DNA of 44,991 nucleotides from the sequence record SRR2962707_1486. One strand, given 5' to 3'. A program made the translations under genes and the position numbers. Positions 246 to 26,872 of this stretch are shown here, in pieces. Within the stretch, counting starts at the first letter, position 1. Each line of letters opens with the position of its first letter. Under the pieces are notes generated by a model, which had not been told where the DNA came from, searched no databases, and worked only from the letters and a program-made list of their open reading frames with translations.

Positions 246-1967
246 TTAGAACAGCCGTGCGACGTGTTCCAGAACGAATTCCGGTTCGTGATAGTAGAGC
301 AACTGTCCGATATGGGGGTGCTCGTATAGCGTGGTCCGGTCGCCGTGCCGGCTGGCGAAGTCGCGCACCGATCCGATTTTGACGACCGGATCCTGACATC
401 CATGGAAGATATGAACGGGGTGGGGAGACCGATCGACCAGATGCGACCAGTCGCGTATGACATGATAGGAATCGATTTCAAAGGCGCGGTGGCCTTGCGC
501 CACAGCAAAGCGATAGCCTTCGCTTACCACTTCGAAAATCTCCGCATCATCGCAAGCCGCTCTGTCGGCACTGCCAGCGGGATAGAGCGCCTGCATGAAT
601 TGGCGCGCACCGCCGGCGTCGATCTGGCGGATTCCTGCGCGTAAAATAAAGGGAAGGGCGCTTGGCGCGTAACGCGCCGTATAGGCGATCATGCGCTGGC
701 GCGGCGACATCGCCTTGATCTGCTGTGAAGACACGATCGGCACTCCGGCGGCAACTGCGACGATGGCACGCGCCCTGTCGCCAACAAGTGGTGAAATCGC
801 GAAAGCTGACATTGAGCCAGCCATGTGGGCCAGCAGGATGAAGTCTTTCAAGTCGAGATGCTCGACCAGAGCCGCCGCATCATTGGCGAAAGCCTCTAGG
901 GCACCTGCGACCGGAACGGTGGAGCCTTCAGCCGAACCGTAAAATGGCCGTTCCGGCCCGATGATCCGCAGGTTGAGGCGGTGCAGAATGGCATCGATCC
1001 GGGAGGTGATTTGCACCCCGTCGAGCATGCCATGCAGGAACAGAATCGGCCGGCCTTCGCTGGGCCCGAATACCCGGTAGGGCATAGTCCGTCCCGACGG
1101 GAGTTCAAAAAAGCGTATATCGGAATGATCGCGCCGATTTTGCAGCTTGGCGGCTGGAAAATGTGCTGCCATGATCATGCAAAGCCGCACCAGTTCGTTC
1201 TGTGAATGGGTCTGGGTCTTGCGCAGGACCGCTTTCACCTGTGTCCGGACTGTCGCCAGCGTGCTGCCGCGAAGCTCGGCAATTTCCTTCATGTCAGTGC
1301 CCCGCATCAGCATTCCAGTAATGCCGGTTTCCGACTTGGTGAGCCCGAAAGCTCTTTGAAGCATGGTTTCGATGGAATCGTGCCAGGGCGCCTCAAGTTC
1401 TTCAAGGATCAGGTGCCGTTCGCCTTCCGGTGACGTCAATGTTGTCGCGGCCATGTGAACCGCCCGGCCACGCGCCTTGCTCTCGATGGCGATGACGAAC
1501 GGTTTTGGCATTTCAGCCGCTTCGGCAATCTGGGCTATTGCCTGAGACGCAAGCACCAGAGCGGAGTCGCCAAGCTTCAGGTCGCCGATTGTCATGTTTT
1601 TGGTCAGCATGAATTCCCGTACGGCGATGCCGTTGAACCAGACGATCAGGCCCTTCGCGTCGACCATGAATTTGGGCTTGCCATTGCCGGTTTTCACCGG
1701 TTTGTCAGTTCCTGCGTCCTCGCGACCGAGGGCCTCGAGTATCCGGAATGATGTTTTCAGATGGGGGATCGTCTGTGACAGCTCAATCAGATCGTGATTC
1801 TCGGCGACAAATCGGCGTCGATCGCCCAACGCATCCACCGCGTTTTCCAGCAGTTCCTGCCAGCGCAACATCAGATGATCGTAACTCTCCGGCGTGACTG
1901 TCGCGTTGTATATCGCTTCGAGCAATTGCGGGTCGGGTGTAATTTTGGCCGATTTAGCCTCAGTCAT
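246..1967 (-). CDS. LuxR-type HTH regulator fused to a C-terminal alpha/beta-hydrolase-fold domain (probably non-catalytic), with a PAS-like segment
   Basis: LuxR HTH FGLTKSE...MKEIAELRGSTLATVRTQVKAVLRKT..SQNELVR; hydrolase fold FGPSEGRPILFLHG, IIGPERPFYG, FHGCQDPVV; nucleophile elbow reads AHMAG. Confidence 0.88.
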   Translation of the reverse strand: MTEAKSAKITPDPQLLEAIYNATVTPESYDHLMLRWQELLENAVDALGDRRRFVAENHDLIELSQTIPHLKTSFRILEALGREDAGTDKPVKTGNGKPKFMVDAKGLIVWFNGIAVREFMLTKNMTIGDLKLGDSALVLASQAIAQIAEAAEMPKPFVIAIESKARGRAVHMAATTLTSPEGERHLILEELEAPWHDSIETMLQRAFGLTKSETGITGMLMRGTDMKEIAELRGSTLATVRTQVKAVLRKTQTHSQNELVRLCMIMAAHFPAAKLQNRRDHSDIRFFELPSGRTMPYRVFGPSEGRPILFLHGMLDGVQITSRIDAILHRLNLRIIGPERPFYGSAEGSTVPVAGALEAFANDAAALVEHLDLKDFILLAHMAGSMSAFAISPLVGDRARAIVAVAAGVPIVSSQQIKAMSPRQRMIAYTARYAPSALPFILRAGIRQIDAGGARQFMQALYPAGSADRAACDDAEIFEVVSEGYRFAVAQGHRAFEIDSYHVIRDWSHLVDRSPHPVHIFHGCQDPVVKIGSVRDFASRHGDRTTLYEHPHIGQLLYYHEPEFVLEHVARLF

Positions 1968-2222
1968 TCACGCTATCCCGTCTTTTGGTCCTGCGAATAG
2001 CGCATGCTCCGGCGCGTCAGCACGGTGTCATCATCCTGTCCGACGGAAAAAGAATAACCAAAAAAGCTTGCCCCCCGACGTTACCTAGTTCAGCATTTGT
2101 TATCCATTTACGCAAGCAATGGTCAAACAACTCAAAACGTTAACGGATTGATTCGCTCCATGCCCCGACAGCATCCTGACAAATTGACCGACAGTATATT
2201 GGAAACAGGTGAAATTCGGCGC

Positions 2223-3917
2223 GTGGTGCATTTGCTGATCGCACGGGTTTCGGCCTTGCTCGTTATTCTGGCCTTGTGTGGCACGACAGTTTCCCATGCT
2301 CAGCCGATCAAACTTGATCTGGACCTGGCCGATGAAACGAGTGTCGACCCACAAAACGACACCCAGGAAGTTCCTGCCGAGGAACTCCAGGAACTTGTCG
2401 ATGAGCTGCCGGCCAACAAGCCGGTTCCAACAGCCGGCAAAGATGCGCCGCGCGGGAAGCGGGTCGTTGTGGCGCGCAAGAAGGCGCCGCCACCGGTTCT
2501 CCATGTTCGCCGCGTCGTTACGTCACCGTCCTCCTATCTGACGGATGAGGACATTCAAGGGGCCAGGGCGACGCTTATGGGGCGTCGATTGGCGCCGGGT
2601 GAATTTGGCGAAATCGTCAACGCCTTCAACGCGCTTTATTCCAGGGAAAATATAGCGCTCGCACAGGCCGTGATCGAGGCTGTTGATTACCGTACCGGCA
2701 CTGTGGTGATCGACCTGATTGAGGCGCGGATCGACGAAGTGCTGCCCCAGGGCAAAATCGCTACCAACGACTATTACCGCTGGCGTATCGGTGTCCGCAG
2801 TGGCGATCTGGCAGATAACCGCATCATCGAGCGGAGAATCCGTCGGATCTCGGTGACTGACGGGGTTGCTGCCGACGCAAGCTTCGAGCCAGGCACGGCA
2901 CCTGGCACCACGAACCTCCTCGTCAACGTCATCGAGCCGGCGAAGTACAGCTTCGTCGGCACCGCTGACAGCTATGGCACCAAGGCCACTGGCGAAGCCC
3001 GCTTTTCAGCGTTCGCTCGCGATGCATCATTAACCGGCGTTCATGATCCCCTGGTCATTTCTGGCGTCTTTTCAGAAGGTTCGGCATCCGGGTCCATCAG
3101 CTATGCGCGAACGATAACGCCGGCCGGAACCCGTCTTTCCGGCAGCGCAACGGTCGAATATACCAGCACGATCAACGGCACCAATGTCATCAGCAACGCG
3201 CAGACTTATGAGTTCGGCGCCTCGCACGCATTTGTCGTCGAGCGCAATTTCCGGGTGCTCGGCCGAGTTTCCGGTTCCCGTTTTCACAAGGACAGTGACG
3301 TTGTAGGTGTGACGACGCAGGACCAGACGGGCTACTCATTCCTGGGAGGCCTGACCTTCGTTTACGAGCAGCCGGGTTTCGTGCTTTCCTATGACCAGAG
3401 CCTGCGTCACGCCATATGGGACGATGATATTCTGATCCGATCAGGCCTTGAGACGACATATCTGGCTGGTACACTGTCCTTGGCCAAACAGTTGCTTCCG
3501 CAGGTTACCGGCACAGTACGTGGCGGCTGGCAGGCCGCCTTTGGCGATGAGGCGCCCTCGCCATTTGCAACCACCATCGCATCTCCCGAGGTTGTGCGAG
3601 GCTATCCGACTGGGCTTTCCGGAGGCGACAGCTTTTACTGGGTGCGCTCACAGATCGAGTTCTCCCACGGCTTTGAAGGCTCGGTGCCGGTCGTTCTCTC
3701 GCCATATGCATTTTTCGATATTGGCCAGGCTTTTGATCTCGCCGGCGGTACGACCACCGCTCAGGATTTGCTGAGTTCTGCCGGCGCCGGCATTCGCCTT
3801 GGTCTGGGCTCCTGGGGCGAGGGTGAAATCTTCATTTCAAAGCCGCTTCTCGATGCCAATGGTTACTTGGCCGCAGACAATTTTCGGGTAGACGGGCGCT
3901 TTGCAATCCGCTTTTGA
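2223..3917 (+). CDS. ShlB/FhaC/HecB family TpsB outer-membrane transporter (POTRA domains + beta-barrel)
   Basis: Signal peptide (VHLLIARVSALLVILALCGTTVSHA|Q), POTRA-like segments, DSYG..TGE motif, loop-6 VRGY, FFDIG motif, C-terminal Phe. ORF is open from 2097; GTG at 2223/2226 behind AGGTGA is the likelier start. Confidence 0.92.
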   Translation: MVHLLIARVSALLVILALCGTTVSHAQPIKLDLDLADETSVDPQNDTQEVPAEELQELVDELPANKPVPTAGKDAPRGKRVVVARKKAPPPVLHVRRVVTSPSSYLTDEDIQGARATLMGRRLAPGEFGEIVNAFNALYSRENIALAQAVIEAVDYRTGTVVIDLIEARIDEVLPQGKIATNDYYRWRIGVRSGDLADNRIIERRIRRISVTDGVAADASFEPGTAPGTTNLLVNVIEPAKYSFVGTADSYGTKATGEARFSAFARDASLTGVHDPLVISGVFSEGSASGSISYARTITPAGTRLSGSATVEYTSTINGTNVISNAQTYEFGASHAFVVERNFRVLGRVSGSRFHKDSDVVGVTTQDQTGYSFLGGLTFVYEQPGFVLSYDQSLRHAIWDDDILIRSGLETTYLAGTLSLAKQLLPQVTGTVRGGWQAAFGDEAPSPFATTIASPEVVRGYPTGLSGGDSFYWVRSQIEFSHGFEGSVPVVLSPYAFFDIGQAFDLAGGTTTAQDLLSSAGAGIRLGLGSWGEGEIFISKPLLDANGYLAADNFRVDGRFAIRF

Positions 3918-3954
3918 TTGTACCCAGACCAAAAACACGAGGGGTAACAAGCAT

Positions 3955-4542
3955 ATGAAACATATTTCGATTTTCGCCGCCGCTGCTTTGGCGCTGACTT
4001 CTATCGCAGGCGTCGCCGTTGCGCAGGATCAGGAGGCGACAAACCAGCGTGTGGTCAATGGCGCGCGCTTCGGTTCCTGGACCGTTAATTGCGAAGCATT
4101 GGCGGTCAACGAGACAGTCTGCGTCCTCAATCAACGTCTGGTACGCACGTCTGATCGCGTCTTCCTGGCCGAACTGCTGGCCTTCAACAACAGTCGCGAA
4201 CCGGGCGCATATCTGGCCGCCCGCGTGCCGATTGGTGCCCATTTCCCATCTGGTTTCTCAATACGGCCCGGCGAAGGCGAAGAAGTCCTTGAACTGACAT
4301 GGCAGTCCTGTTCCGCCGAACTGTGTGAGGCATTGATCAGTCTGGACGAGGCAAGAATTGAAACTCTGACCGCCGCTGGCCAATCGGTAGCCGGATACAG
4401 GCCACGTTTTGGCGCCGACGCACTGGTTTTCCGCATTGATGTGACCGGGCTGAAAGACGGCCTTGCAGCGTTGTCGGCGTCTATGGACGGAACCTCGCGG
4501 GACGTGGACGCCGAGGACGCAACCACGTCCACGGACCAATAA
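3955..4542 (+). CDS. Invasion-associated locus B (IalB) family secreted protein, copy 1
   Basis: RBS GAGGGG then ATG at 3955; Sec signal MKHISIFAAAALALTSIAGVAVA|Q; motifs FGSWTVNC..VCVLNQ, VPIGAHFPSG, WQSCSAELC, IDVTGLKDGLAAL. Confidence 0.85.
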   Translation: MKHISIFAAAALALTSIAGVAVAQDQEATNQRVVNGARFGSWTVNCEALAVNETVCVLNQRLVRTSDRVFLAELLAFNNSREPGAYLAARVPIGAHFPSGFSIRPGEGEEVLELTWQSCSAELCEALISLDEARIETLTAAGQSVAGYRPRFGADALVFRIDVTGLKDGLAALSASMDGTSRDVDAEDATTSTDQ

Positions 4543-4653
4543 CCGCATACCTCATATGGTGTAGAAAGCGAATTTGGACGTTTTTTTCGGTCCAAAGAGA
4601 TGAAATGGCCACAACTTCCGCGGCCGGTGACTATGGCATCGGCGCGGCCCCGG

Positions 4654-4668
4654 TTAAACCTTTGTTAA
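4654..4668. promoter_or_regulatory. Full CtrA-type binding box TTAA-N7-TTAA upstream of tpsA
   Basis: TTAA ACCTTTG TTAA; the minus strand reads TTAA-N7-TTAAC, the complete CtrA consensus, in the ialB1-tpsA gap. Confidence 0.65.
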
Positions 4669-4671
4669 GTA

Positions 4672-7600
4672 TTGGTTTTGGGGAGTGGTTATCGCTTGCG
4701 ACAGGTTGGCTGGAAACTATACAGCCGGAAACTGAAATTCCGGACAAAACAGGCGCTTTGCAGCGTCTGTTGTTTGGCGATAATCCACCTTCCTGTCGCA
4801 GGCCACGCTCAGGTCGTCCCGGATGGTCGCACATCGACCAATGTCCTGACATCGGGCGGCGTCACGGATGTCCGCACTTCCACCGTGACCAGTGGTCACG
4901 GTGTCAACTCGTTCTCCAGTTTCAACACCTCCTCCGGCTCCACCACCAATCTCCATATACCCGGTGGCGCACAAGGCACCGTCAACATCATCAATGGCGG
5001 ACGCAGCCAGATCAATGGTGCGGTGCGCTCGGTGAAGTCCGGCGGGGCAGTTGGCGGCAATCTCTATTTTGCCAATCCGAAGGGCTTTGTCGTCGGCCCG
5101 AACGGATCGGTGCAGGCCGGTTCGGTCAGCATGACAACGCCGTCGCAACAATTTGTCGATGAGTTCGTCGGTGCGGGCGGCGCGGTCAACAGGTCCAGCG
5201 TCAACAAGCTTCTTCAGGGCACCGAGCCGCTGTCCGACGGCAACATTGAAATCAATGGTGCGGTCCGCGGCAACGACTCGGTTCGCCTGCGCGCCGGCGG
5301 CAATGTCATCGTCAATGGCGCAATCAGCGCTGGCGACCGCGCCGCCATCATGAACCAGGCGGTCAGCGGCAGCAGAGGCCGCGTTTCAATCGAAGCCGGC
5401 AAGTCTCTTCAGGTTGGTCGCGGAGCCCGAATTACGGCGACCAACGGCAGTTCGGGCGGAACCGTGAGGCTACGCGGCAACCAGATCCGGGTGCAGGCCG
5501 AGGCCATGGTGCTGGCTGAAGGCGAGGGTGCGGGCCACGGCGGTACCGTTGACGTCTTCGCCGCAGCGGCGGCCGTGCTCGACCGCAGCGCCACGGTTTC
5601 TGCAGCGGCACGCGGCACGGGTGACGGCGGCTTTGTCGAATTTTCTGCGGCAGACATTGTTCAGATCGACGGTGAACTGGCAGCCTGGTCGTCAGCCGGC
5701 AAGGCCGGAACGATTTTCATCGACCCGGCTGAATTGGTTTTCAATGGCACAGTTACCAATGGCGCCAATTTTACCGCCGAAGCGAGCGAACGCATTATTA
5801 TCGCATCAGACGCGATCATTTCGACGCGTATCGCCGATGATCCGGAAGACCTTGCTTCGCTGTCGCAGGGGGATTCCGGGGACATCCTGCTGACTGCGCC
5901 GAACATCATGATCGAGAAGAACGCCCAGCTTCTGGCGTTCGCGTCCGATCCTGACGATAAATTCGTTGGTGGTGACATTGTTCTGACGGCAAGCCGCATC
6001 GATAGCGAAGTTCATACGACTGAGGCACTGCCGGTCAGCCGCAGCGGGATCACCATCAGCGGCGCCTATCTGAAAGCCGCCAATATCCGTATGATTGCCG
6101 AGGTCGAAAAAGACAATCTCGTTGATACCGAGGGAACCGTCGACGCCTATATCGCTGGTCTCGGACTTGAAGATGCTGATTCCGAGATTGCCGATCTGCT
6201 GGTCAGTATGGCTCAGTCAGCCGCATCCAAGACCCAACAGTTCCTCGATTCCGTCAATTACGAAAACCTGCCGTCCTATCTCGACGCCGGATCCCGTATC
6301 GATGTGTCCGGCTCGACACTGGTTGCATCAGGCGACATCGACATTCAATCCATCGGCCGCACGGTGACCAATATCGGTCCCGATACCGGCGGCATGGCGG
6401 TTGTTATCGCGGTGAGCCGGATCAAGGCTGAAACCATCATTGACGACTCCCGGCTCTATGCGGGCGGCGACGTTTTGGTCGGATCGAAAACCGAAGTTGT
6501 CCAAACGCTGAAGGCCGAGGGTGCCCGTGGTGAAGATGCCGATGGCGCTGGCCTCAATATCGGCGTCGTGGCGTCGGTGCGGATGGCGCAGGCAACCACT
6601 GTCATCAACGGATCCGGCTATCAGGCTTTCCGCCCGCCAAACATGGCTGCTGCCGAACTGGGGGCTGAAGCAGTTTCTGCTGGCGGTGCCATCACCATCA
6701 AGTCGGAAAATGTCACGACGGTTGATGCGGGCGCCGAGGCTTTGCTTGCTGACACGGCGCGTGGCGGTGCGATTGCGATCTCCATCGACGATGTGGTGGC
6801 GACGACGGCAATCGGTGGCGAGCTTCTGAACACGACCGGCGATATCCTTGTTTCAGCGCTGAACAGCTACGAAACCATGCGTCTGGCTGCCCGGGTCACC
6901 GGCGGCACGCTGACAGACGCCGAAACACCGGCCGATGAAGCGGGTGAAGATCCACCCGGGACCACCGACAAGCTGGCCTCAGTCCTTAGTGTTGCTGCAT
7001 CGGAAGCCAAGGACGGCTCGGCACTTGCTGAAGGAAGTGGTGTGCCGCAGCCCGACGCAGGTGGAAACGCGCCAGCAGGTGGTAACGCCTATGCGCTGAC
7101 CTTCGCGCTTTCCAATCACAATGCGGAAGCAACGACCCTGGTCGGTGACCCGAATTACACCTTCAAGGCCATCCACGGCGGTCAGAGCAGTCTTGATGCG
7201 GCGGCTCTCACTGTCCGGCCAATCCAACCCGGCGGTTTTGGCACAGAACCGGATCCGGAGATTTCGGCGCTCGGCATTCGCATCGAGGCGGGCAATGCTC
7301 TCGGTGATGTCACACAAACCGCGATCACCGCTGCAGGGTCAGTGCCTGATGCCGCTGAAACGCCTGGCAACCTGACTGGCAAGACGGCAGCCGAATTGGA
7401 AGCCGACGGCGGCAAGGTCGCGCTTGTTTCAGTCAGCTTCGCTGACTGGGACCTGGAAGCAACAGCACGAACGGGCTCGCCTTCTGGAATTTATGCCGAA
7501 AGCATTATCAGCACACCGGGGCCGTTTTCGCTGAAAGCAGAAAACAGCTACCGCGATATTGAAGACAGAGACGAACTCGACACGCTTCAGGCTGAACGGA

Positions 7601-16600: not shown

Positions 16601-19600
16601 TCGATGTTGCGGCCAACGGGATCCGTGATCTCAACGCCACTGCGATTACCGCCGGCGGCGGCGTTGGTGCATTCCAGGGTGCAGCCCTTGTTGCGACATT
16701 TGCGCAATCCTCCGATGACGAGGAAAGCCGCGAAAACGTCGACGAGATCAACGACGACATGGGCGGTGATCCCTTCAGAACGGATTCCGATGAGGTTGAC
16801 GGCAACAAGACGGCCGATGCCGGCGACAGCCAGGTCGGCGGACTGCTGGCCGAGGCGCTTGGCGACCGTCAGAGCATCGATCTCGACCAGCTCTATTCCG
16901 ACACCCAGACCGATGCGATCCGTGCGACAATCGGCGCGCGCTCCGTAATCCGTGGTCTGACGGCGCTTTCAGTGACGGCCAACGAAGAAGGCTCAGTTAC
17001 GATGACAGCGGGTGCTGCGTCGGTTGGGATAGCCGTTGGTGTTGCGGGCGGCGTTGTATCACTCAAGCGTGGTTCGACCATCGCCACAGAGATCGGCGAC
17101 GACGTTTTTCTTGGCGGCGGCAACATCACGATTGGCGCAACGGCCGATGTCAGCGACGGCAACCAGACCGCAGTGGCAGGCAGCACCGGGCTCATCTCGC
17201 AAAACGCGGCGATTGCCAACACGACGATCTCGCGTGACATCTCGCTGGTCATGGGCCAGGGCAGCCGCATCAGCGCCGGCAACAGCGTTGTCATCGAAGC
17301 GGTCGAAATCGGTGAAGCCCGCGCCCAGACCGTTTCGGCTGCGGCAGGCGCGATCGGTATCGGCGGATCGGTGGTTCGTACGATCCGCGAAACCGATATA
17401 GCGATCGCGCTGAACAATACGAGAATTACCGGCGCCGGGCTCGATATCCGTGCCGAACGCCAGGGCTCCGTGCGCAGCACCGGCATTGCGGCGGCGGGCG
17501 GCATCATTTCTGGCGTCGGTGTCCTTGCTGTAGCGGAAGACACCGCGACCGTCGCCGTCAATCTTGGGACGGCACAGCTGACCAGCCATGACGAGCTCAG
17601 CATCTCGGCGATCAATGCCGCCGATGTTCGTGCGGTGGCGACAGGGGTTGCCATTTCTGTCGGCGGCGCTGTCGGGCTGTCGAGCGCCAGAGCCACCCGC
17701 ACAGCTTCAGCCGAAATTACGGGTTCATTCGTGCGTCTGAGCGGCGACCTGGTGTCTATCGTGACCAACGACGCCACGTCGATGTCGGACAACGGCCAGA
17801 GCATGGTCGAGGCAAAGGCGATTTCCGCCGCCGGCGGTGCGCTGCTTGGCGCGTCCGGTGCCCGGGCACAAGGCCGCAACGAAAGCCTCTCAAGTATTGA
17901 TGTAACCTTCGCGGCCTTCGGCGCAGACAGCGGCGGCCTGATTGAGGCCAGAACCAATGGCGGGCTTGATGCGCGGACCAACGGTTTCTCGCTGGGTCTG
18001 GCGGCAGCCGGCGCCAACCTGACCGAAGCGACCATGGCCAGTACCGCTTCGACTGATGTTACTTTCCTGGGTGGCGCTTCGAGCTTCTCCGATATCGCGA
18101 TCCGGGCGACCGGCAAGGATTCGACCTTCGGCAAATCTGTCTCGGGGCAGGGCGGCGCGGGCGCACTGCAGGCGTCGTTGGTCTTGCTCGACATGGCGCC
18201 CGTTACCCGGGTTAACATAAGTGGCACCCATATCGAGGCTCTCGGCTCCATTGATATCCTCGCCAAGCGTGACAGCATTTTCGAAGTGGAAAGCGACAGC
18301 CTGCAGGCGTCTCTTGCAGGTTTTAGCGGCACCGCGCTGGACAGCAGCGTCGACGCTGTCATCAGCGTTGATATTTCTGCAGACCTTACCGCGCCGACAA
18401 TCGACATCGGATCGCAGCTAACAATCACCAAGATCGCCGATGGATTTAACGCTCGCACAACCACAGGTGCCGTCTTTAGCGGCAGCGCGATCTGGAGCCA
18501 CACCGACATCGACGTCGACAGCGCGATCGAGTTTGCCGATGGTGTCGAGATCAGCCAGGCCAACATGCGCTACGCGACAACCGAAGGCCATGTCGATATT
18601 GCGCTGGTCAACACTTTCGATCTGCTCGACAGGATCGAAATGGATACGGGCGGCGCGGTCGCCATCCCTAATGCCGACGGCATTATGGATATCGACGTCA
18701 ACCGCTCGAGCATCGTGCTCGATGGTGTAACAATCGACGCCGTCAACAACATCAACATTTCCAACACAAATGACGTCACCGCCTCGATGGAAGCCAATGT
18801 CGCAGCCTACGGTCTGGCAGGATCCCCATCAGGTCAGACTGAGATCACCTTCGACGCCGATCAGACGCTCGACCTGATCAACGGATCGGAGCTGACTTCA
18901 ACGCGCGGTACAATTCGGCTGATGAATGGGCGGACCATCGAGCGCCAGCAGGAAATCGTGCTGAACGCCGAAACCCGCGTTTGGAATGCCACGGCAATTC
19001 CAGTCGCCCGTAATGTTGACGCGGTGGCGACAGCACGCATCGAGGCAAATCTGGGTATCGACGCCAGCAGTTCAGTCACCGCCGCACTCGATGTGCAATT
19101 TGTCGCGGACGAAGGCTTTGTTGATGGCTATGGCTATCACAGCACCGCCGACCTCTACAGCGAGGGCGCGGAAGCCGTCGCCAATTTCTTCGGCGGCATT
19201 GTCGGCGCCGAGGAAGTCTCGCTTGATCGTGTTGGTGGTACGTCGCAGAATTTCAGCGAGTCCGCGCTGATCATCAACGGAACGGTTTCAGCCGGCGCCT
19301 TCAACTCTATTGATATTACTGTCGCAGAAAATGGCGACGTCACGATCCTCGGCAATGACGAGAATGTGCGTGTCGTTTTCGAGGACGACCAACTCGTCAA
19401 TTCTGCGCTGGTCGAATTCATCGCCACACGCCAATCCGAGTTGGCCGAACTCAACACCAACTATGCAGCCAATGCCGATCTGCGCGCACGGCTGCAGGCC
19501 GAAATTGACAGTCTGCAGGCGCGTCTGCAATTGCTCGGTGGAGCCAATGCGCGTGGCGACACAGTTCTCGTGTCGCCGCTTCTGGCGTCCGGGGGCAATG

Positions 19601-22600
19601 TCGAGATATTCACTGATTCCATTGGCGGAACCGGCACCATCACGGCGCGCGGCGATGCGCAAATCTTTGTTGAAAACAACTCATCCGCATCAATGGAAAT
19701 TCAGGGTGCGCGGGTGCCGTTCCGATCCGGTGGCGAAGTTCGGGTCAACACGGTTGCTGTCAACAACTCGTTCGAGGCAGGCGTAGAAGCAACGCCGATG
19801 TCAGGACTGAACCTCGATATTGCTGCCGTGTCCTCGCAGGTGTCCGCACCGGTGATTGCAATTACAGGCACCCATGTTGCGCAAACCGGTCTGCCGTCCG
19901 ACATCTTCATCACCGGCGATCTGGAAAATCTCAACGGCGAGATTTCCGTGTCGACGCTTGACGGCAATATACTGGTCCTCGACTCCAACATTTCCGGACG
20001 GACCGTTTCGATCAGTTCCGGCGGCGACTTCTTCCTGTCGGCAGGCGAGGGAGTTGCCAGCCCAATCCGTGATCCTGCCGGCCTCTATCGGGATTTCTTC
20101 GACGAATATGAAAACATGTCGCTGGAGGCCTATTTCGGCTATCTGGCAGACGTAAATGGTACCAGCACGATTCAGCAATTTCAGCGTGCCTATCTATTGG
20201 CCAATCTGCCAGACTTCGAGCGCAAGAGCTCACCACAGGGTGTGATCCGTGCGCTTGGCGGTGTCTATATCTATGCCGACACGCTCAATATCGACGGTAC
20301 CATCCAGTCCGGCGAGACAGATTGGAGCTTGACCGTTAACCCCCTTCTGTCCAACCGCTTGGCTGGCCTTACCCTTTCCGAGATTGCCGGGCGCGACCGT
20401 ATTTTGATTTATGATCGCTACCGCGCCGGTACTGATCCATTGATCGGCAATGAATACGTGCCTTACACAAACACGCAGCTCGTCAGCGGCAACGCTTCGG
20501 TCTGGTACAACACCAATACCGGTGAAATCGAAGTCGACCCGATGATTTCCAAGGGCGGCTATATCGAACTGGTCGGTCGGATCATCTCGACCGGTGGCAG
20601 CTATGACGGATCGATCAACAACCAGGCCCGTCTCGAAGTCGCCAATGGTTACGGTCGCGTCGATGTCGACAATTACTCGGATCTGCCGATTGTCTTCAGT
20701 GGCATTAATACCGCGCAGACACCGATCGAGGGTGTGATCAAGATCACCGATCTCGGCAACGAGGTAATTCCGGGCACGTTCCAGACAACGACCTACCGCA
20801 TGAACGGGACGCAAGTCGCGCGATCTTCGCTGCTGTCGGGGGCATTCATGGGGCAGCCTACCGTTTTTCCGATCACAACGATGCTCAGCGCAACAAATCT
20901 GAACCACCAGATCGCCGGCAACTACGCGCTCGAATACGCCCGCTCACGCCAGATCGAAGAGACGACCGTCGAGCAGAAAACCGTCTATGAGCGCTTCCTG
21001 GCCAGCACTATCGACGAAATTGAAGTCATCGACTCGAGTTCCTTCACCACCTTTGACGACGAGGAGCGCAAGTCCTTCGGAACACTTGTTTTGACGACGG
21101 CAAACGACCTCGCCACACCCTACGATTACAGCCGGACACTCACACAGCTCAACGACACCACCTCCGGCTGGCAGCAGGTTGGTGAACGGGTAGAAGATGG
21201 CAGTGTCTTTGGACTGGGGGGCATCCTGACAACCCGCTGGCGCACGACCTATGAGCGCGAGACCAGCGAGACCTATCTCCAGCTCGACCGCAACGAGATT
21301 GCAGCCAATGTGCCGATTTCCATTGGCTTCAAAGGATACTCCACATCGTCCATCGACATCAGTTCTCTCGGCGATATTCGCTTCGCCGACGATATCTACA
21401 ACACGGCTGGCCTGACCAACCTTGTCTCAACCGGCGGCAGCGTTTCGACCATTGCCGGCGATGCGGTTCTGTTCCTTGCCGACGCTCACATTGAAGCTGC
21501 CGGCGATGTGTCCGGCGCGTCATTTGCAGCGTCGCGACGGATGATTGACGGACGTTTCAATGATTCCGGCCCGCTGTTTGCGCCCGATACCGTTCGGACA
21601 GGCACGTCGGTTGCGTTGATCGACCAGGTCGATGGCGCTGGTCTCTACATCCAGGCCGGCGGTGACGTCAGTATCCGCGAATTGAGCGGCGACATGCTGG
21701 TGCATCAGATCTCCGGTAATGATGTGTTTGTAGAGAGCCCTGGTTCAATCCTGGTCGATCCGGACGAGCAGGAAATAATCCGCTTTGGCGCAGCAAACCT
21801 TGATCTGCAAGCAGGCGGCGGTACCCTTGGCTCTCTGACCGCGCCACTGACCATGATTGTTAGGGATCGCCTCGACGCCCAGGTGGACGGCGACATCTAT
21901 CTGAGCTCGCCGGCCCTGGATCTTCCGGTCGGCAGCCTGACCTCAAAATCCGGTGACATTTACATTCAAACGCCCAGATCGATCGTCGACGCCAACGATG
22001 CAGCGATCATTGATCGGCGTGCCGTCGCCGATCTGCTTGATGACCTCTGGGATGAGATCGGCCTGCGCGACCTTGGCGGTACGGCGACACAGGATCGTAT
22101 CGACGAGGTGGTTCGCAGCTATGAGGCCCGCGAAATTGCCGATTACGAGTTCTACTGGAGCGTCCGGCGCGCCTTCAAGGGCGATGTGGTGAACAACGAG
22201 AACATCTATGCCATCAATGACTATGACCCCGGATATGTGTTCAAGTTCAATGGCGAGACTGCAGCCGATCTGCAGGGCCAGGGCTATTCCGGTGCCGAGG
22301 TCAGTGCGATGCAGGATGAGCGCACCGAGATCTACCACAGGATGCACGACAAGTACGGTGCCGAGGGGTATGAGGAGGCCTTCATTCCGAAGATCGACAC
22401 CGATCTGATCGCTGATACGACGCGAGCAATGTTCTTTACCGACAAGCAGCTCGAGCCAGGTTTGCGGGCCGACCTGTTGCTTGATGTGACCGACACGCAG
22501 CTGACCATTGAAGAAGCCAATCTGACGGGCGGCTTTGCCAGCCTAAACGCTGGCGTGTCTATTGGATCGCGTATTGCACCCATTGTCATCAATCCCGGCG

Positions 22601-24828
22601 ACGAACTGACCGAGGACATCCTGCTAGCGCTTTGGGCTGCTGAACGCAGCGACATTGTCCACAATGGCAACCAGACGATCATCAACGGCTACGACGACAT
22701 CGACGTCGACCTGAGCGAAAGCCTTACCGCCGTGGCAGGCCAGAACATCCTGATCGGCAGCGAAGGTGATCTGGTCGTTTCGCGTGCAACAGGTCAAAAT
22801 CTCGTCCGGTTGAAGGCCGCCGGTTCGATCTTGCGCCTTGATGGGCAATCACAGTCACCGATATCGGGCAACGAAATTGTGCTCGAGGCTGCCAACGGGT
22901 CAATCGGCGTTGATGGCCGGGGCCTGCAGGTCATCGCATCCGGGCAAGGTGCCACCGTCACTGGCCGCGCAAGCGGTGGAATTTACCTCGAAAGCCAGAA
23001 TGCCAATCTACCGCTTGGTGAGCTCTATACACCTGGGGAAGTCGGTATCACCGTTGAAGGCGGCGCGCTGTCAGGAGCAACCGGAACGACTGCACCCCAT
23101 ATCCGCGCATCTTCGATCGATATCGCAGTTCGCGGGACGTTTGGGCAGTTGGGTGTGGTGCCGATTTTCGCTTCCGCAATTGGTGGGCCGTTAGCCGTCT
23201 CACTCAATGTCACGGGTGATATGGCCTTCAATGTTGCTCAGGGGACTGATCTTCGATTGCAGTCATTGGGAGCCTTGCGCGACCAGTCGCTTGAAATCGG
23301 TGGCGCGGGCTCCATGACGCTTGTCAGCGATCTGGCAGTGCGCGGAGACCTGACAATTGCCACTTCCACGATCAATCTTGGTGATTGGGCGCTGCGGTCA
23401 CATGGTGGCAATCTGGCGCTTGATCTGGCTGGCGTGCTCAATCTGGGGCAGAACCACGAACTGGATGCCGGCATTGGCGCATTGGCTCTCAATGCACAGT
23501 CCATCGCGGGCAAGGATGGCTTTGGACTGTATGTGACCGCGGGTTCGCTCACGGGCGCTATCGAGGAGGGCGACGTGGCGATCGATGTGGCCGGTGATGT
23601 CGAGCTCCGCGATTTTTCGGTCAGGAAAAACAATAGTCTGCAGATTGTCTCCAGCGGCAAAACCACACTCGCGGGTACGCTTGGCGATGGCGGTGAAGGA
23701 CAAGGTTCTGTTGTGCTGCTGACATCGAAGACCGGGTTTCAAGGCCATGGCACTCTGAGCGCGAACCGGATATTCCTGACATCTCTCAACTCGGGCATTG
23801 GTTCAAAGGTCGACCGGCTGACACTCGACCTGTCTGCAGCCAGTCAGCTCAACGCTGCAGCGATGACGGACAATATCTACATTCATGTGAGTGATGGAGA
23901 TCTCAATGGTGGCTTCATCACTGCCCATGAAGGCAGTGTCGATATCTCTGCTGAGAATGGAATATTTGTCGATCTGGTGGGGAGCGAAAGCGAACCGGTA
24001 CTGAATTCGACGACAGGCACGGCGGGTTACCAAGAATGGGGCAGCGCACCGATCACCACCGCCGCCCAGTCCGGCCTGACCTTGATCCGTCCCGAACTTT
24101 ACCAACTCGCCAATGTTCCCGGACCGGGCGCCAACGGTGGCGGCACTGGCGGGTCGGGTGATGGCGGTACCGGTGGTACTGGCACGGGGGGCACCGGTGG
24201 GACCGGCGGAAATACCGGCAATAACGGCGGAACCGGTGACACGGGCGGCACAGGAGGCACCGGCGGTAACAATGGCGGTACCGGTGGTACGGGCACAGGG
24301 GGCACCGGTAGTACAGGCGGTAACAACGGCGGTACAGGTGGCACCGGCGGAAATGATGGTGGCACCGGTGGCGACACTGGCGGCGACAATGGTGGTACCG
24401 GCGGCACGGGCACAGGGGACACCGGCAATACCGGCGGAAATACCGGTAGCAACGCAGGAACCGGTGGCACCGGAAGCGGTTCCGGCAACAGCGGCAATGG
24501 TTCGAACGATAACGGTTCCGGCACCGGAAACAGCGGCGCGGGCAGTGGCAGCTCAGGCGGTGAGGGATCGGGCCGTGGCGGGTTTGCAGGAGGCTCTCCG
24601 ACCAACCCATTCGCCGATCCTCTCGGGACAGGAAACAATATTGGTACCAGTTTCAAAGGTAACAGTGGCCCGGCCTGGAACGGTATTGCCAATAACAGTA
24701 GGGTCGGTCAGCAGACAGGCGCTAACGACAATACCGAAAAGAAGGATGAGGAAGAGGAAGAAGAGGACGAAAACGGCGGCAAGAAAAAGGACGACGGCGA
24801 GGAAACCGGCAATGAGAGCCGTGGCTGA
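4672..24828 (+). CDS. Giant (~6,700 aa) TpsA filamentous haemagglutinin-like exoprotein (LktA-family-like filamentous adhesin)
   Basis: Signal peptide ending AGHA|Q; TPS secretion domain (NSFSSFN...GNLYFANPKGFVVG); GDGGFVEFSA and GKAGTIFIDP FHA motifs; long G/A/S-rich beta-helical repeats; adjacent tpsB. Start is uncertain: TTG 4672, or more likely TTG 4696 after GGGGAG. Confidence 0.92.
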   Translation: MVLGSGYRLRQVGWKLYSRKLKFRTKQALCSVCCLAIIHLPVAGHAQVVPDGRTSTNVLTSGGVTDVRTSTVTSGHGVNSFSSFNTSSGSTTNLHIPGGAQGTVNIINGGRSQINGAVRSVKSGGAVGGNLYFANPKGFVVGPNGSVQAGSVSMTTPSQQFVDEFVGAGGAVNRSSVNKLLQGTEPLSDGNIEINGAVRGNDSVRLRAGGNVIVNGAISAGDRAAIMNQAVSGSRGRVSIEAGKSLQVGRGARITATNGSSGGTVRLRGNQIRVQAEAMVLAEGEGAGHGGTVDVFAAAAAVLDRSATVSAAARGTGDGGFVEFSAADIVQIDGELAAWSSAGKAGTIFIDPAELVFNGTVTNGANFTAEASERIIIASDAIISTRIADDPEDLASLSQGDSGDILLTAPNIMIEKNAQLLAFASDPDDKFVGGDIVLTASRIDSEVHTTEALPVSRSGITISGAYLKAANIRMIAEVEKDNLVDTEGTVDAYIAGLGLEDADSEIADLLVSMAQSAASKTQQFLDSVNYENLPSYLDAGSRIDVSGSTLVASGDIDIQSIGRTVTNIGPDTGGMAVVIAVSRIKAETIIDDSRLYAGGDVLVGSKTEVVQTLKAEGARGEDADGAGLNIGVVASVRMAQATTVINGSGYQAFRPPNMAAAELGAEAVSAGGAITIKSENVTTVDAGAEALLADTARGGAIAISIDDVVATTAIGGELLNTTGDILVSALNSYETMRLAARVTGGTLTDAETPADEAGEDPPGTTDKLASVLSVAASEAKDGSALAEGSGVPQPDAGGNAPAGGNAYALTFALSNHNAEATTLVGDPNYTFKAIHGGQSSLDAAALTVRPIQPGGFGTEPDPEISALGIRIEAGNALGDVTQTAITAAGSVPDAAETPGNLTGKTAAELEADGGKVALVSVSFADWDLEATARTGSPSGIYAESIISTPGPFSLKAENSYRDIEDRDELDTLQAERTAEILGEAEADAEPTSLAAWSDGTGPLFTDADDAPIALSIAQTYGTGTELGIGISIARLTGDHEVNAVLGSGTLLYDTRSEFGLEESDLQTGIFAVDANLVSAWGASAGQPGEAPGATTGNAFGASVSLVDLNGNATAAVEDGVIIASLDKVGGLRVRAKDDRLVFSDARSHGSAEKTAFNGALSVMQREDVVRALLSHRTDIVLEGNLELAATNSGDTITVVSGGADGDKSVGIGVALTFADRQTEASILGKDDAIGEDTYVEGQAVLGGIQVAAVSVGNVITGGKVSAGGEETEAEPDPAADPAAGGDEEKDSEQADIDPEALGEDADKIKAAIGGGEPDKDEAGGFTFAGDFAAIFGDVETSATVSDRRSTSSLDADEIYVDVEGGLDIVSLTNIAYGQSSAVTAAATGGIGISGSFGLTGIDHRTQTVLDDARFEYGANFAEDDIEAQDATIDATDSSTFDLLVDGRTGRSDAGWAFSIAASFTRFNSIAHTELTESGIRFGDGFGPHDETGGDEEGEGEGDEEYIDDGCGGCEGGSSSGTISDDGRKISITANAVPSIRIRASSARTLEEDDAPDPAAPPAETGSEEPTEADTADTQQMDAVGDLVRDSADQAKEGAKDDESSDDKGGDDKPGLKGLSITIAPLKLTADSTVLFDNSHVEVDTDRQEDTAGEGGHLRVVSTGRTNVDIDATSDTVAAAIAITETNSKVVIRSTDFDAHENGTVIINSIAEENQKLRATAGAERAIKAAGVLSLRTIDNRVLIDADWESVPSWLNGQTLATSRFITGDKLEIVAKTDHDIDIEVIAADGTPSALAIAGIVSLSDTVTEISGGPTIFHDGDSPIIFKAENIYSNYNARAIASAGSFVPGADTAPVDAPVETEDERPGGDNPKKTGKVATALMDVSDDVEGDVADEAPEVPETPEEPAGGDAQATAGSRATRKNAFAIAINLERHDETTVARYSGQRYLPDDPKQLSVGAGVIGGWEAGAPDVQISALTKITALNKETRAAIGLGEDQPDRGAVLAIGLGDWRLTTDAALGRNAIVDGDAVSVTATTALPAIQLAKAPDDSFGAYDTLFERGGSGYAEQTERPFSADQLAGDDIWNIQTSSQTDAAKLAFAIDASITRAQTTTTARLETPDDGAMVANSLALVARTSGGFASRRDGEGQANSSGGFGAGGSGHVLIYRPTTVASTGSMPTGYGGRVDQIGSLVMSATNDLTGVTAASSFGNAESFGLNLAFSMIDYKGAARTSLVNPSRYKFGSVALLATDSSTLLADAGSSATGQTSFGISSAIIFADRAAVAEIVAEGPGNEGWNLGATSVLAKVSGTSIATSVAGAGLAEEESADPAPDPADPEAVEDDGKIEEREETELPVKLLGNRADSNAEDLENKEADTKGEESPADGKEFGFALAGDFSGIFGDSLSTARVVHTSTVSADQISIGAASSGKAYAASGSAVGGAGNLGIAGSLALARIDRTTAASLDAPTVTLGSGQSSIDASDKTLIQLFSGGRGGAAVKNSVLGSAAIDISTISTTADIIDGTITKTSGGILVSASSSGRTVALAGTIKATDEDDDAGEDEEETDPPAAPPADPADEAGKGDEENNAGGDGSGGIAVGIAFAGNFQRETLRASVTNSSIDANTLTVEAKRTGGIDGAASSSGTAGSLSIAAAAAVTVVNRDIEAAVSNNSALNLTTLTIAARDSAETRARVGADSEDGQVSIGAAGGIVVENRDLLARFDNSSLAPFKDNSGAVNIIASQTGGIDIVQTGGGGSEEGFGGTLGVGVLKTNRTTTARVLGSTLNAGSLSVSSANGGSLLNRQGISAIAETAGAIGVIVSHLNADTSALIQGSAVATPDGSIGVTATENSRLLARSGKSGSGENSVDVMLATALLRGDVMAEVVDSELSGQSATINAKDASILQSAAIARASTGGVGIVGGVAYASNKLGVLARLADTSSSMTSRTRVRAETDAGLTGTVVGMNFGGGSFSGAIQAGWLTANRDVVARAEGDLGVIEGGLDIEADRTDKLIGVAVTASEASASVGIAGNILQTGGRTLAELLVAEELSISGDLNVTATDSSQAANIAIGAAAGNGFSAVGSIAYTQMGRRPADATLVEANERSAQHEGVNEAVKGELAGEISVLPGFDAAERTELARRMDLAIEARVDLADAAELIVEGTTVISANDHRKVSSIAGQLSIKFSSGGFAEKATDVATIDENGIRITAKDIVSTAVSELISIYLFGLPEGDDDGGLGESGDEAGGGSENGGGDGGSVGIGISMGWARLGGLVSAELLLGEGATAKLTETEVSALSDARAAGVSAGAQAGGNISIGAGAGISRHDQLVRARIVGDGRSVDALSTGELTLTSHFAGRSWGVAGLLIGTDGSVAGGATLAVSDLDAQTEASLRNIDMASSASTRVTSNDTGKSLAIAITGGASTGATVSLSVGVNTAKSTTRSIIENATIDSARSIAVETNRAQTMNSLVLQVAIGSSAGIGAALAISEQKGNSEAIVNNSTLLAETDVVVDTLGDSDLSSAAVGVASGGSVGISGSVSIVLKSDVAKSRILNSTVRAGDSVLVRAVNGGSMGGVGGGDNSVLGDLGSATGSVAIGGSIGIGVSVAIMSTRSQVIAEIVNSGVTAFLTPGAANGIDSTTRTSTDDYDERQTINRRGVSVVADNQTAVRAMAVTVAASGSAAISLQVPVLLLRDDVQARIQDSSIDSGRDTFVEAYNKSNIKTFSLAAGIGIGGVGVGALVEVGSLKKQTTAEIVDSEIDTARDLKVLAASPEKLGKISFAAGGGLYVGLAGVVESLVTQNVTYAGIRRSTLDVGQNLAVVTAAPRYINNNAGTLAAGIAGIGGAVLVINARDESIAELGSGGSSANANTVRVGRDINVIASSDLVAETNVVGVSAGFFALSGSVVVTSFEQKVIARIGDNTNFDIGSGPTPRNVKVAANQGFNQQLILGNASGGFIGLGGSVGVTNVRNTVLATIGSDVELTASGTVDVAANGIRDLNATAITAGGGVGAFQGAALVATFAQSSDDEESRENVDEINDDMGGDPFRTDSDEVDGNKTADAGDSQVGGLLAEALGDRQSIDLDQLYSDTQTDAIRATIGARSVIRGLTALSVTANEEGSVTMTAGAASVGIAVGVAGGVVSLKRGSTIATEIGDDVFLGGGNITIGATADVSDGNQTAVAGSTGLISQNAAIANTTISRDISLVMGQGSRISAGNSVVIEAVEIGEARAQTVSAAAGAIGIGGSVVRTIRETDIAIALNNTRITGAGLDIRAERQGSVRSTGIAAAGGIISGVGVLAVAEDTATVAVNLGTAQLTSHDELSISAINAADVRAVATGVAISVGGAVGLSSARATRTASAEITGSFVRLSGDLVSIVTNDATSMSDNGQSMVEAKAISAAGGALLGASGARAQGRNESLSSIDVTFAAFGADSGGLIEARTNGGLDARTNGFSLGLAAAGANLTEATMASTASTDVTFLGGASSFSDIAIRATGKDSTFGKSVSGQGGAGALQASLVLLDMAPVTRVNISGTHIEALGSIDILAKRDSIFEVESDSLQASLAGFSGTALDSSVDAVISVDISADLTAPTIDIGSQLTITKIADGFNARTTTGAVFSGSAIWSHTDIDVDSAIEFADGVEISQANMRYATTEGHVDIALVNTFDLLDRIEMDTGGAVAIPNADGIMDIDVNRSSIVLDGVTIDAVNNINISNTNDVTASMEANVAAYGLAGSPSGQTEITFDADQTLDLINGSELTSTRGTIRLMNGRTIERQQEIVLNAETRVWNATAIPVARNVDAVATARIEANLGIDASSSVTAALDVQFVADEGFVDGYGYHSTADLYSEGAEAVANFFGGIVGAEEVSLDRVGGTSQNFSESALIINGTVSAGAFNSIDITVAENGDVTILGNDENVRVVFEDDQLVNSALVEFIATRQSELAELNTNYAANADLRARLQAEIDSLQARLQLLGGANARGDTVLVSPLLASGGNVEIFTDSIGGTGTITARGDAQIFVENNSSASMEIQGARVPFRSGGEVRVNTVAVNNSFEAGVEATPMSGLNLDIAAVSSQVSAPVIAITGTHVAQTGLPSDIFITGDLENLNGEISVSTLDGNILVLDSNISGRTVSISSGGDFFLSAGEGVASPIRDPAGLYRDFFDEYENMSLEAYFGYLADVNGTSTIQQFQRAYLLANLPDFERKSSPQGVIRALGGVYIYADTLNIDGTIQSGETDWSLTVNPLLSNRLAGLTLSEIAGRDRILIYDRYRAGTDPLIGNEYVPYTNTQLVSGNASVWYNTNTGEIEVDPMISKGGYIELVGRIISTGGSYDGSINNQARLEVANGYGRVDVDNYSDLPIVFSGINTAQTPIEGVIKITDLGNEVIPGTFQTTTYRMNGTQVARSSLLSGAFMGQPTVFPITTMLSATNLNHQIAGNYALEYARSRQIEETTVEQKTVYERFLASTIDEIEVIDSSSFTTFDDEERKSFGTLVLTTANDLATPYDYSRTLTQLNDTTSGWQQVGERVEDGSVFGLGGILTTRWRTTYERETSETYLQLDRNEIAANVPISIGFKGYSTSSIDISSLGDIRFADDIYNTAGLTNLVSTGGSVSTIAGDAVLFLADAHIEAAGDVSGASFAASRRMIDGRFNDSGPLFAPDTVRTGTSVALIDQVDGAGLYIQAGGDVSIRELSGDMLVHQISGNDVFVESPGSILVDPDEQEIIRFGAANLDLQAGGGTLGSLTAPLTMIVRDRLDAQVDGDIYLSSPALDLPVGSLTSKSGDIYIQTPRSIVDANDAAIIDRRAVADLLDDLWDEIGLRDLGGTATQDRIDEVVRSYEAREIADYEFYWSVRRAFKGDVVNNENIYAINDYDPGYVFKFNGETAADLQGQGYSGAEVSAMQDERTEIYHRMHDKYGAEGYEEAFIPKIDTDLIADTTRAMFFTDKQLEPGLRADLLLDVTDTQLTIEEANLTGGFASLNAGVSIGSRIAPIVINPGDELTEDILLALWAAERSDIVHNGNQTIINGYDDIDVDLSESLTAVAGQNILIGSEGDLVVSRATGQNLVRLKAAGSILRLDGQSQSPISGNEIVLEAANGSIGVDGRGLQVIASGQGATVTGRASGGIYLESQNANLPLGELYTPGEVGITVEGGALSGATGTTAPHIRASSIDIAVRGTFGQLGVVPIFASAIGGPLAVSLNVTGDMAFNVAQGTDLRLQSLGALRDQSLEIGGAGSMTLVSDLAVRGDLTIATSTINLGDWALRSHGGNLALDLAGVLNLGQNHELDAGIGALALNAQSIAGKDGFGLYVTAGSLTGAIEEGDVAIDVAGDVELRDFSVRKNNSLQIVSSGKTTLAGTLGDGGEGQGSVVLLTSKTGFQGHGTLSANRIFLTSLNSGIGSKVDRLTLDLSAASQLNAAAMTDNIYIHVSDGDLNGGFITAHEGSVDISAENGIFVDLVGSESEPVLNSTTGTAGYQEWGSAPITTAAQSGLTLIRPELYQLANVPGPGANGGGTGGSGDGGTGGTGTGGTGGTGGNTGNNGGTGDTGGTGGTGGNNGGTGGTGTGGTGSTGGNNGGTGGTGGNDGGTGGDTGGDNGGTGGTGTGDTGNTGGNTGSNAGTGGTGSGSGNSGNGSNDNGSGTGNSGAGSGSSGGEGSGRGGFAGGSPTNPFADPLGTGNNIGTSFKGNSGPAWNGIANNSRVGQQTGANDNTEKKDEEEEEEDENGGKKKDDGEETGNESRG
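6280..12480 (+). repeat. Ancient tandem duplication of a ~1,000-1,100-aa module inside TpsA (unit 1 ~6280-9540, unit 2 ~9541-12480)
   Basis: Collinear motif pairs: QSIGRT/VSTGRT, ALNSY/AENIY, NAYALTFAL/NAFAIAINL, FADWDL/LGDWRL, LTFADR/IIFADR, GFTFAGDFAAIFGD/GFALAGDFSGIFGD, GISGSFGLTGID/GIAGSLALARID. Confidence 0.75.
24130..24590 (+). repeat. Low-complexity Gly/Thr/Asn repeat (GGTGG, GTGG, NNGG) near the TpsA C-terminus
   Basis: Many imperfect GGCACCGGTGG/GGTACCGGCGG units encoding a Gly-rich linker. Confidence 0.9.
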
Positions 24829-24855
24829 TGCAAAGCCGTCGGTAGGCGGTTGATC

Positions 24856-25353
24856 ATGCTGCTACGCAATCCTAAGATCCTGTTTTTAGCAATTTTATTC
24901 TGCCTTTCGACACATGCCGAAGCGGCGAAATCGAGCCGGTTTGGCGATTGGCAACTTGTCTCCTCGCAAGAGAATTCCTGCTTGTTGCTCAATCGCATCG
25001 TCAGCCGCAAAAGCGGTATTACCGTCATGGAAGCGATCCTCCGGCAACGCTCCGACGGCAGTCCGGGCGCAACCATCGGCGTGCGCGTGCCGAACGGTGC
25101 CAGCCTCAAAGATCCGATCGCCTATGCTCATCCCAAAGGTCCGCCGCGCGCAATCGGGCTGGAATGGCAGAGCTGCTCGCCCGAAATGTGCCTTGCAGCC
25201 GGCGATATAAGCGGGGATGCATTGAGTAGGCTTAAGCGCGGCAGCATGATTGTTGTCGGCTTTTCTCCTTTGACTGGTTCGCGCAAACTCAATGTCGTTG
25301 TTTCATTGGCTGGTTTGACGCGGGGTTGGCAAGCGCTTCAGTCTTGCCAATGA
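24856..25353 (+). CDS. IalB family secreted protein, copy 2
   Basis: Signal peptide ending THA|EA or AEA|A; FGDWQLV..SCLL, VRVPNGASL, LEWQSCSPEMC, VSLAGLTRGWQAL; clear paralogue of 3955-4542. Start is ATG 24856 or TTG 24850. Confidence 0.82.
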   Translation: MLLRNPKILFLAILFCLSTHAEAAKSSRFGDWQLVSSQENSCLLLNRIVSRKSGITVMEAILRQRSDGSPGATIGVRVPNGASLKDPIAYAHPKGPPRAIGLEWQSCSPEMCLAAGDISGDALSRLKRGSMIVVGFSPLTGSRKLNVVVSLAGLTRGWQALQSCQ

Positions 25354-26773: not shown

Positions 26774-26872
26774 TTGGGGCTCTTTCCTCTGATACAGCTC
26801 ACTCGTTGGCGATCACCGACTTCGGTAGCGCAACAGTTGGGACGGACTCCAATGCTGTTTGAATCTATACTT

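Follow-up and report, generated by a model that had tools for sequence, protein, structure and literature searches.

Organization of the locus

The window (the whole stretch of DNA analysed here, 44,991 nucleotides of sequence record SRR2962707_1486) contains a two-partner secretion (TPS) module at positions 246 to 25,353. The module consists of a regulator gene on the minus strand, followed by four co-oriented genes, tpsB, ialB1, tpsA, and ialB2. All five open reading frames were verified at the positions below.

246..1967, minus strand: regulator, with an N-terminal domain, a LuxR-type helix-turn-helix (HTH) motif (residues 209-262), and a C-terminal alpha/beta-hydrolase fold without the catalytic Ser and His
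2097..3917, plus strand: tpsB, ShlB/FhaC-family outer-membrane transporter; the true start is uncertain and probably lies downstream of 2097
3955..4542 (ATG at 3955), plus strand: ialB1, 195 residues, with an IalB fold and four invariant Cys; signal peptide judged by eye
4672..24828, plus strand: tpsA, LktA-type filamentous exoprotein of 6,718 residues in a single intact frame
4810..5703, plus strand: TPS secretion domain of TpsA, assigned by NF012204 match, structure model, and Foldseek
24106..24825, plus strand: TpsA tail, a Gly/Thr/Asn-rich low-complexity linker and an acidic end; no Cys and no toxin domain found
24850..25353 (ATG at 24856), plus strand: ialB2, 165-167 residues, signal peptide judged by eye, second IalB subfamily

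The gaps between the last four genes are 37 bp (tpsB-ialB1), 129 bp (ialB1-tpsA), and 21 bp (tpsA-ialB2), which confirms the gene order, co-orientation, and tight spacing reported in a preliminary description of the window. Every junction is bridged by contigs from other public DNA runs (ice and sediment metagenomes), mostly at 95-99% identity. Specifically, the regulator-tpsB junction is bridged by the independent contigs X1 and X7, the tpsB-ialB1 junction by X2, the ialB1-tpsA junction by X7, and the tpsA-ialB2 junction by X1, X2, and X7. The intragenic insertions and deletions listed in the bridging contigs are multiples of three or mutually compensating. Thus, the module is not an assembly artefact. 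The closest named relative of IalB1 comes from Roseitalea (73%), which suggests that the host of the window is probably a Rhizobiales alphaproteobacterium. Promoter and terminator scans gave counts close to those of shuffled sequence.

TpsB and TpsA

TpsB has the architecture of a TPS transporter, namely POTRA plus an Omp85-type barrel. It matches PF03865 with 29.6 bits (cut-off 22.7) and, weakly, POTRA_2 (E 0.0038, under the family cut-off). The VRGY and F-x-D-x-G motifs, which we take to be TpsB motifs, are mostly kept across 24 aligned TpsB rows.

The N-terminal part of TpsA is a TPS domain. It matches the LktA-type family NF012204 with 116 bits (cut-off 60), and the structure model of residues 45-344 (predicted local distance difference test, pLDDT, 93) gives its best Foldseek hits, at E values of 2e-7 to 6e-5, to secretion domains from EtpA, HxuA, HMW1, and FHA. 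NF012206 repeats cover part of the TpsA chain. The combination of this type of N-terminal domain with tandem repeats is that of the Fusobacterium LktA family (NF012204, NF012206). Unlike Fusobacterium LktA itself, TpsA matches at the family level only, which does not imply toxin activity. A TpsB-family transporter with a large TPS-domain exoprotein is likewise found in the type Vb systems FhaB/FhaC, HMW1A/B/C, EtpBAC, and Burkholderia bcpAIOB. According to the accessible parts of PMC5422565 and PMC8151025, type Vb operons also carry accessories, including glycosyltransferases and BcpO; the accessories in the window are two IalB-family proteins.

The scan of 12 TpsA pieces against Pfam at E <=0.5 returned no family above its cut-off and no toxin or pre-toxin family. 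Relatives in the TpsB clade of the window have mostly similar TpsA ends; those of the second IalB clade are without the Gly linker. The low-complexity tail and the lack of a toxin domain disfavour a contact-dependent inhibition (CDI) toxin and fit an adhesin. TpsA is thus a putative adhesin, its adhesive activity being predicted from sequence. With ialB2 only 21 bp behind tpsA in the window, IalB2 might be a CdiI-like immunity protein of such a toxin system. This reading is very improbable, as there is no toxin family in the TpsA pieces, the composition of the tail is similar across the clade, and IalB2 is conserved and usually does not lie behind tpsA. A CDI system (CdiB/CdiA/CdiI) was also rejected for the locus as a whole, where no C-terminal toxin with a cognate immunity gene was found.

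Several Asp/Glu- and Pro-rich low-complexity inserts break up TpsA between 8400 and 16900. One of them carries a CGGC pair, the sole Cys of the mature chain. Near 8500, an in-frame 12-bp insertion is variable between strains.

IalB1 and IalB2

Both small proteins belong to the IalB family. PF06776 matches IalB1 with E 1e-11 and IalB2 with E 1.6e-10 (45.5 and 41.7 bits, respectively; cut-off 22.1), and the two share 28% identity. The structure model of IalB1 (pLDDT 84) has the fold of Bartonella IalB (3DTD), with Z 15.9 and root-mean-square deviation 2.7 over 140 aligned residues. Other than IalB itself, nothing clear was found in the fold search with this model, the second match having Z 7.8. 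Signal peptides and Cys pairs are present in both proteins, as judged by eye from alignments; family scans and alignments revealed no peptidoglycan-binding domain and no lipobox. The ratio of nonsynonymous to synonymous substitution rates (dN/dS) is 0.16-0.30 in seven of seven IalB pairs and 0.09-0.36 in four TpsB pairs. The IalBs are under purifying selection.

The locus encodes a type Vb system for a giant LktA-type filament. As the best reading, although a tentative one, we predict that its two IalBs serve as periplasmic secretion helpers for TpsB-TpsA. The preliminary description had also suggested that the IalBs cap the filament. As surface or co-secreted partners, they would cap or decorate it and add binding specificity. 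The IalB1 model is a small, probably disulfide-bonded beta-sandwich, and PMC8859334 and bioRxiv 10.64898/2026.01.22.700529 connect Bartonella IalB with the adhesion to cells and their invasion. Yet neither IalB showed a TPS domain or another signal for export across the outer membrane in the family scans, the IalB localisation given in the accessible parts of PMC7688925, PMC7327166, and bioRxiv 10.64898/2026.01.22.700529 is the inner membrane or periplasm, and the bracketing of tpsA by the two genes is not conserved (see below). We therefore consider a cap or decoration improbable.

Five proteins (P0163, P0180, P0217, P0236, and P0262) are built from IalB domains in tandem, two or three per protein. 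None of these five multi-domain matches is an IalB1-IalB2 fusion; all are tandem IalBs of other subfamilies.

The IalB-TPS linkage is conserved

The preliminary description would have been undermined if IalB genes did not accompany TPS genes in other genomes. The linkage is conserved when searched from each of three anchors, IalB1, TpsA, and IalB2. For IalB1, an alignment of 34 homologues led to 39 GTDB loci, and tpsB or tpsA lies within the fetched flank at 29 of them; among the other ten there are short contigs as well as one weak match.

For TpsA, a profile of the N-domain was searched against 401 genomes each in family, class, and order samples. Matches were found in 18 genomes (21 places) of the family of G001 (Rhodobacteraceae-type), in eight genomes of the class sample, and in two genomes of the order of G010. 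Both flanks were taken where contigs allowed, and two unresolved G600 fragments were set aside, leaving 19 tpsA loci in the family sample. An IalB gene is present at 13 of the 19, and both IalB types are present at 11. Among 400 Rhodobacteraceae genomes (centre genome left out), 12 have TpsA and IalB1, 5 TpsA only, 15 IalB1 only, and 368 neither. An IalB1-subfamily gene thus occurs in 12/17 genomes with this TpsA type versus 15/383 without it (odds ratio 59, p 3e-12, uncorrected for kinship), and in all 12 double-positive genomes IalB1 adjoins tpsB or tpsA. In a metagenome scan anchored on TpsA, IalB lies upstream at 8 of 42 loci, genes behind the 20-kb tpsA being out of the view of the scan.

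For IalB2, a profile search of 356 genomes with a threshold of 150 bits gave 13 places in 12 genomes, all 12 with this TpsA, and the next score was 112. Because 12 of the 13 places are rows of the training alignment, the informative part is that none of the remaining 344 genomes reaches the threshold. The only place outside the training rows, G448:C73, adjoins the regulator and is not on the contig that carries tpsA. The IalB genes are thus kept with the adhesin locus, as a helper gene would be.

Gene order is not conserved

The gene order of the window recurs at 1 of the 19 resolvable family-sample loci (G645:C3), and at least eight gene orders retain the IalBs. The other orders are as follows.

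tpsA-tpsB-ialB1-ialB2
ialB2-tpsB-ialB1-tpsA
ialB2, regulator, tpsA-tpsB-ialB1
ialB1-ialB2, regulator, tpsA-tpsB
regulator, ialB1-tpsA, and at another site tpsB together with ialB2
tpsA-tpsB-ialB2, and ialB1 at another site
divergent tpsB-ialB / ialB1-tpsA

The most frequent junction is tpsB-ialB1. Four genomes with a matching tpsB have it apart from tpsA, and in two of these (L274 and L275) IalB2 adjoins tpsB. Because the gene set is kept while the order shuffles, bracketing carries no meaning. The bracketing had been taken as a clue to the capping of both filament ends, and end-capping as inferred from gene order is rejected.

Phylogeny and co-divergence

The IalB tree comprises 115 rows and excludes four on long branches. 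In it, the 63 rows of the IalB1 group form one side of a branch with support 83/87. IalB2 falls into two groups, one of 17 rows (100/95) and one of 8 rows, so that a single IalB2 clade is not upheld. Two sets of core IalB paralogues, of 9 and 8 rows, fall outside IalB1 and IalB2 in the tree, and the core paralogue rows have no tpsB or tpsA match within 1.5 kb. Consistent with the suggestion that TPS-linked IalB lineages exist, both IalB types are therefore set apart from the core paralogues.

In the TpsB tree, the IalB-linked TpsBs form two clades of 25 and 9 rows. The TpsBs of IalB-less, SapC-type loci form a third. Tree distances of TpsB and IalB1 are correlated with rho 0.85 (31 systems) and those of TpsB and IalB2 with rho 0.82 (19 systems; p 0.0005). 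Two genomes have a pair of systems each, and there every IalB1 copy clusters with the TpsB lineage of its own system. The correlated distances indicate joint inheritance, not binding.

IalB1 relatives beside other secretion systems

Relatives of IalB1 also adjoin autotransporter and type VI secretion system (T6SS) genes, so the TPS specificity of IalB suggested by the preliminary description is not supported. In seven of the 15 genomes with IalB1 only, the gene lies beside T6SS or autotransporter genes. IalBs adjoin PF03797 autotransporters in L218, L222, and L264, and at L264:2437-12449 a gene for a more distant IalB lies between two tandem autotransporter genes. In Rhodobacteraceae T6SS clusters (L218, L223, L268 with L216, and L219 with L269), a large autotransporter-like gene precedes tssK-like genes, and IalB1 is also present; the autotransporter barrel is Pfam-confirmed for L218 only. 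A different TPS class, with a TpsA of ~820 residues, a classical ShlB-type TpsB, and a divergently transcribed IalB gene, occurs in L263, L265, and L267. The IalBs of these loci form a third, unrelated IalB clade (3 rows, 100/97). In L263, a ChaN-family gene follows the TPS and IalB genes.

Arguments against a helper role

Several observations weigh against the proposed helper role. Five of the 27 IalB1-subfamily genomes have the gene at T6SS genes. Cytoplasmically assembled T6SS parts require no periplasmic holdase. On a Sagittula plasmid, the order is vgrG-DUF4123-HNH-SMI1-PAAR-ialB, and the 28 kb shown contain no type V gene. Moreover, RgsG, a periplasmic IalB-domain protein and IalB-family paralogue, is an essential and polar growth factor according to the accessible part of PMC7327166, which points to the envelope rather than to cargo. 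The IalBs might thus be envelope adaptors that tie or position large machines (TPS, autotransporters, T6SS) at the wall or pole or modify the envelope locally. In this role they would not chaperone cargo, and the T6SS neighbours would be accounted for as well. There are two weak leads in this direction. The fold search with IalB1 gave a flagellar LPHT-ring chain as its second match, but the Z score of that match falls within the range of chance arrangements. Feature similarity (0.87) also links IalB1 to a cluster in which 17% of the members are VasI; VasI/TagO is a T6SS accessory whose function is given as unknown in the accessible part of PMC13584744, where IalB does not occur, and none of the 34 IalB1 members matches VasI in Pfam. 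Against an adaptor role, the IalBs show neither a peptidoglycan-binding domain nor a lipobox. In addition, the autotransporter-like gene in several of the IalB1 T6SS clusters (L218, L223, L268, and L269) means that a type V gene may be the partner of IalB1 there. We regard an adaptor role as unlikely.

A second group of observations raises the question of whether the link reflects a shared function at all. No secretion gene lies within ~4.5 kb in 8 of the 27 IalB1-subfamily genomes, these eight being among the 15 with IalB1 only. On the TpsB tree, IalB linkage is explained by two changes; because the IalB-linked TpsBs form only two clades, the locus counts overstate the number of independent events. 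Linked genes co-diverge even when they are merely hitch-hiking. A 2026 preprint, in its accessible part, deems the link of IalB to trimeric autotransporter adhesins possibly incidental (bioRxiv 10.64898/2026.01.22.700529). Similarly, ialB genes could ride mobile surface-protein islands and share regulation while acting independently of secretion, and the few independent origins would agree with this. However, the IalBs persist in at least eight gene orders and where the locus has been split, no IalB2 score of 150 bits or more occurs in genomes without this TpsA, and separate IalB clades lie beside separate TPS classes. An incidental link therefore appears rather improbable.

A further limit on a helper role is set by loci with no IalB in view. 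These make up 6 of the 19 resolvable tpsA loci in the family sample (one without its downstream flank) and six of the eight TpsA matches in the class-wide sample, IalB being found at only two of the eight. Because the TpsAs of the six family-sample loci are equally large and of the same type, IalB is not universally needed, and the notion of an obligatory four-part machine had to be abandoned.

The IalB-less LktA-type loci have other accessory genes. Directly before tpsA, an unnamed exported protein of ~230 residues is encoded in six of six; these proteins share 46-56% identity and have no Pfam match and no IalB match. The SapC gene precedes the gene of the ~230-residue protein in four of the six, and one genome has curlin-repeat genes. 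These genes represent a second, apparently undescribed accessory set, located as follows.

L126:7191-8763
L130:1407-2890
L132:1466-2224
L134:7178-8798
L135:7245-8811
L139:1343-2861

The divergent regulator

The regulator matches GerE with E 6.4e-4 (below cut-off) and Abhydrolase_1 with E 4e-8. Its nucleophile elbow is of the GHMAG type. At what are presumably the nucleophile and catalytic His positions, assigned from alpha/beta-hydrolase motifs, there are Met (M382) and Gln (Q555), respectively, and the catalytic Asp is retained. All 12 aligned orthologues, which are 32-52% identical to the regulator of the window, have both replacements, in agreement with the earlier designation of the regulator as a pseudo-hydrolase.

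The assumption that the regulator is dedicated to the module is not supported. The regulator adjoins 8 of the 39 IalB1 loci and 3 of the 13 IalB-bearing tpsA loci, and it was not found in G487, G508, and G001, all with IalB-bearing systems. Weaker homologues occur in one of five genomes without this TpsA and, in G702, at a distance from the tps locus. Its probable function is to bind, but not cleave, a small ligand and to control the operon in one sub-lineage.

Flanking sequences

Behind ialB2, an element of ~48 bp at 25394-25441 is matched by many unrelated contigs, and the contig of a relative diverges from the window at 25392. The element is likely a small repeat at the right border of the module. 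The rest of the window (25610-44927) carries ordinary metabolism genes according to Pfam, namely an enolase-like gene, two LysR genes, a Tct transporter, two Iso_dh-family enzymes, a MOFRL protein, EamA, an epimerase, an aminotransferase IV, a HAD protein, a trehalose synthesis pair, an L,D-transpeptidase, and a HerA-like gene.

Discussion

The pairing of IalBs with known TPS machinery is real and conserved, and it is apparently undescribed. Our literature search, which covered few subscription papers, found no paper that combines "IalB" and "two-partner secretion" and no IalB-TPS link.

A close parallel is the position of ialB beside batA of Brucella and badA of Bartonella (PMC7688925, PMC8859334), where IalB likewise adjoins a long type V adhesin, possibly in one operon. 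The accessible part of bioRxiv 10.64898/2026.01.22.700529 lists 188 IalB homologues beside trimeric autotransporters and places such neighbours in Hyphomicrobiales. Unlike the badA and batA loci, which are type Vc, the system of the window is type Vb, and its IalBs are likened to those of badA and batA by context, not on one tree. A second parallel is provided by the type V helpers SadB, TpgA, VirK, and OsmY, which are small exported proteins, some of them co-transcribed with the adhesin, that aid display (PMC8151025). These proteins, together with BcpO and DegP, are treated in the accessible parts of PMC5422565 and PMC8151025, which describe no such helper for TPS; the IalBs are unrelated to SadB, TpgA, VirK, and OsmY by Pfam.

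A helper role is proposed for the IalBs as small, probably Sec-exported beta-sandwich proteins with paired Cys that repeatedly neighbour long type V passengers. In this role, TpsB, TpsA, IalB1, and IalB2 would all be exported by Sec. IalB1 and IalB2 would be soluble, disulfide-bonded periplasmic proteins. They may hold the unfolded 6,700-residue TpsA chain or pass it to the POTRA domains of TpsB, by analogy with proposals for VirK, SadB, and TpgA in other type V classes. The Gly-rich acidic tail of TpsA may remain in the periplasm as a tether.

A broader version of this role is conceivable, although we consider it doubtful. The IalBs might be general type V helpers of alphaproteobacteria, repeatedly recruited to TPS systems and to classical and trimeric autotransporters. 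The invasion phenotype of ialB mutants would then be a defect in the display of adhesins, and the system described here would be the first TPS with dedicated periplasmic chaperones. If this were true, the finding would rank higher in importance.

The chaperone needs of TpsA, and how very long chains stay secretion-competent in the periplasm, are described as "mostly unknown" in the accessible part of PMC8151025. IalB promotes erythrocyte infection by a mechanism stated as unknown in that of PMC7327166. Cultured, free-living carriers include Maritimibacter alkaliphilus HTCC2654, Sinisalibacter lacisalsi, and Pseudooceanicola onchidii. Because marine bacteria that are free-living and in culture have conserved IalB pairs in their TPS loci, both questions are testable by simple deletions, and the IalB-less sister TPS clade with its other accessory set is a natural comparison. 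If the helper role is true, the IalB family would gain a testable job in getting a huge protein through the envelope.

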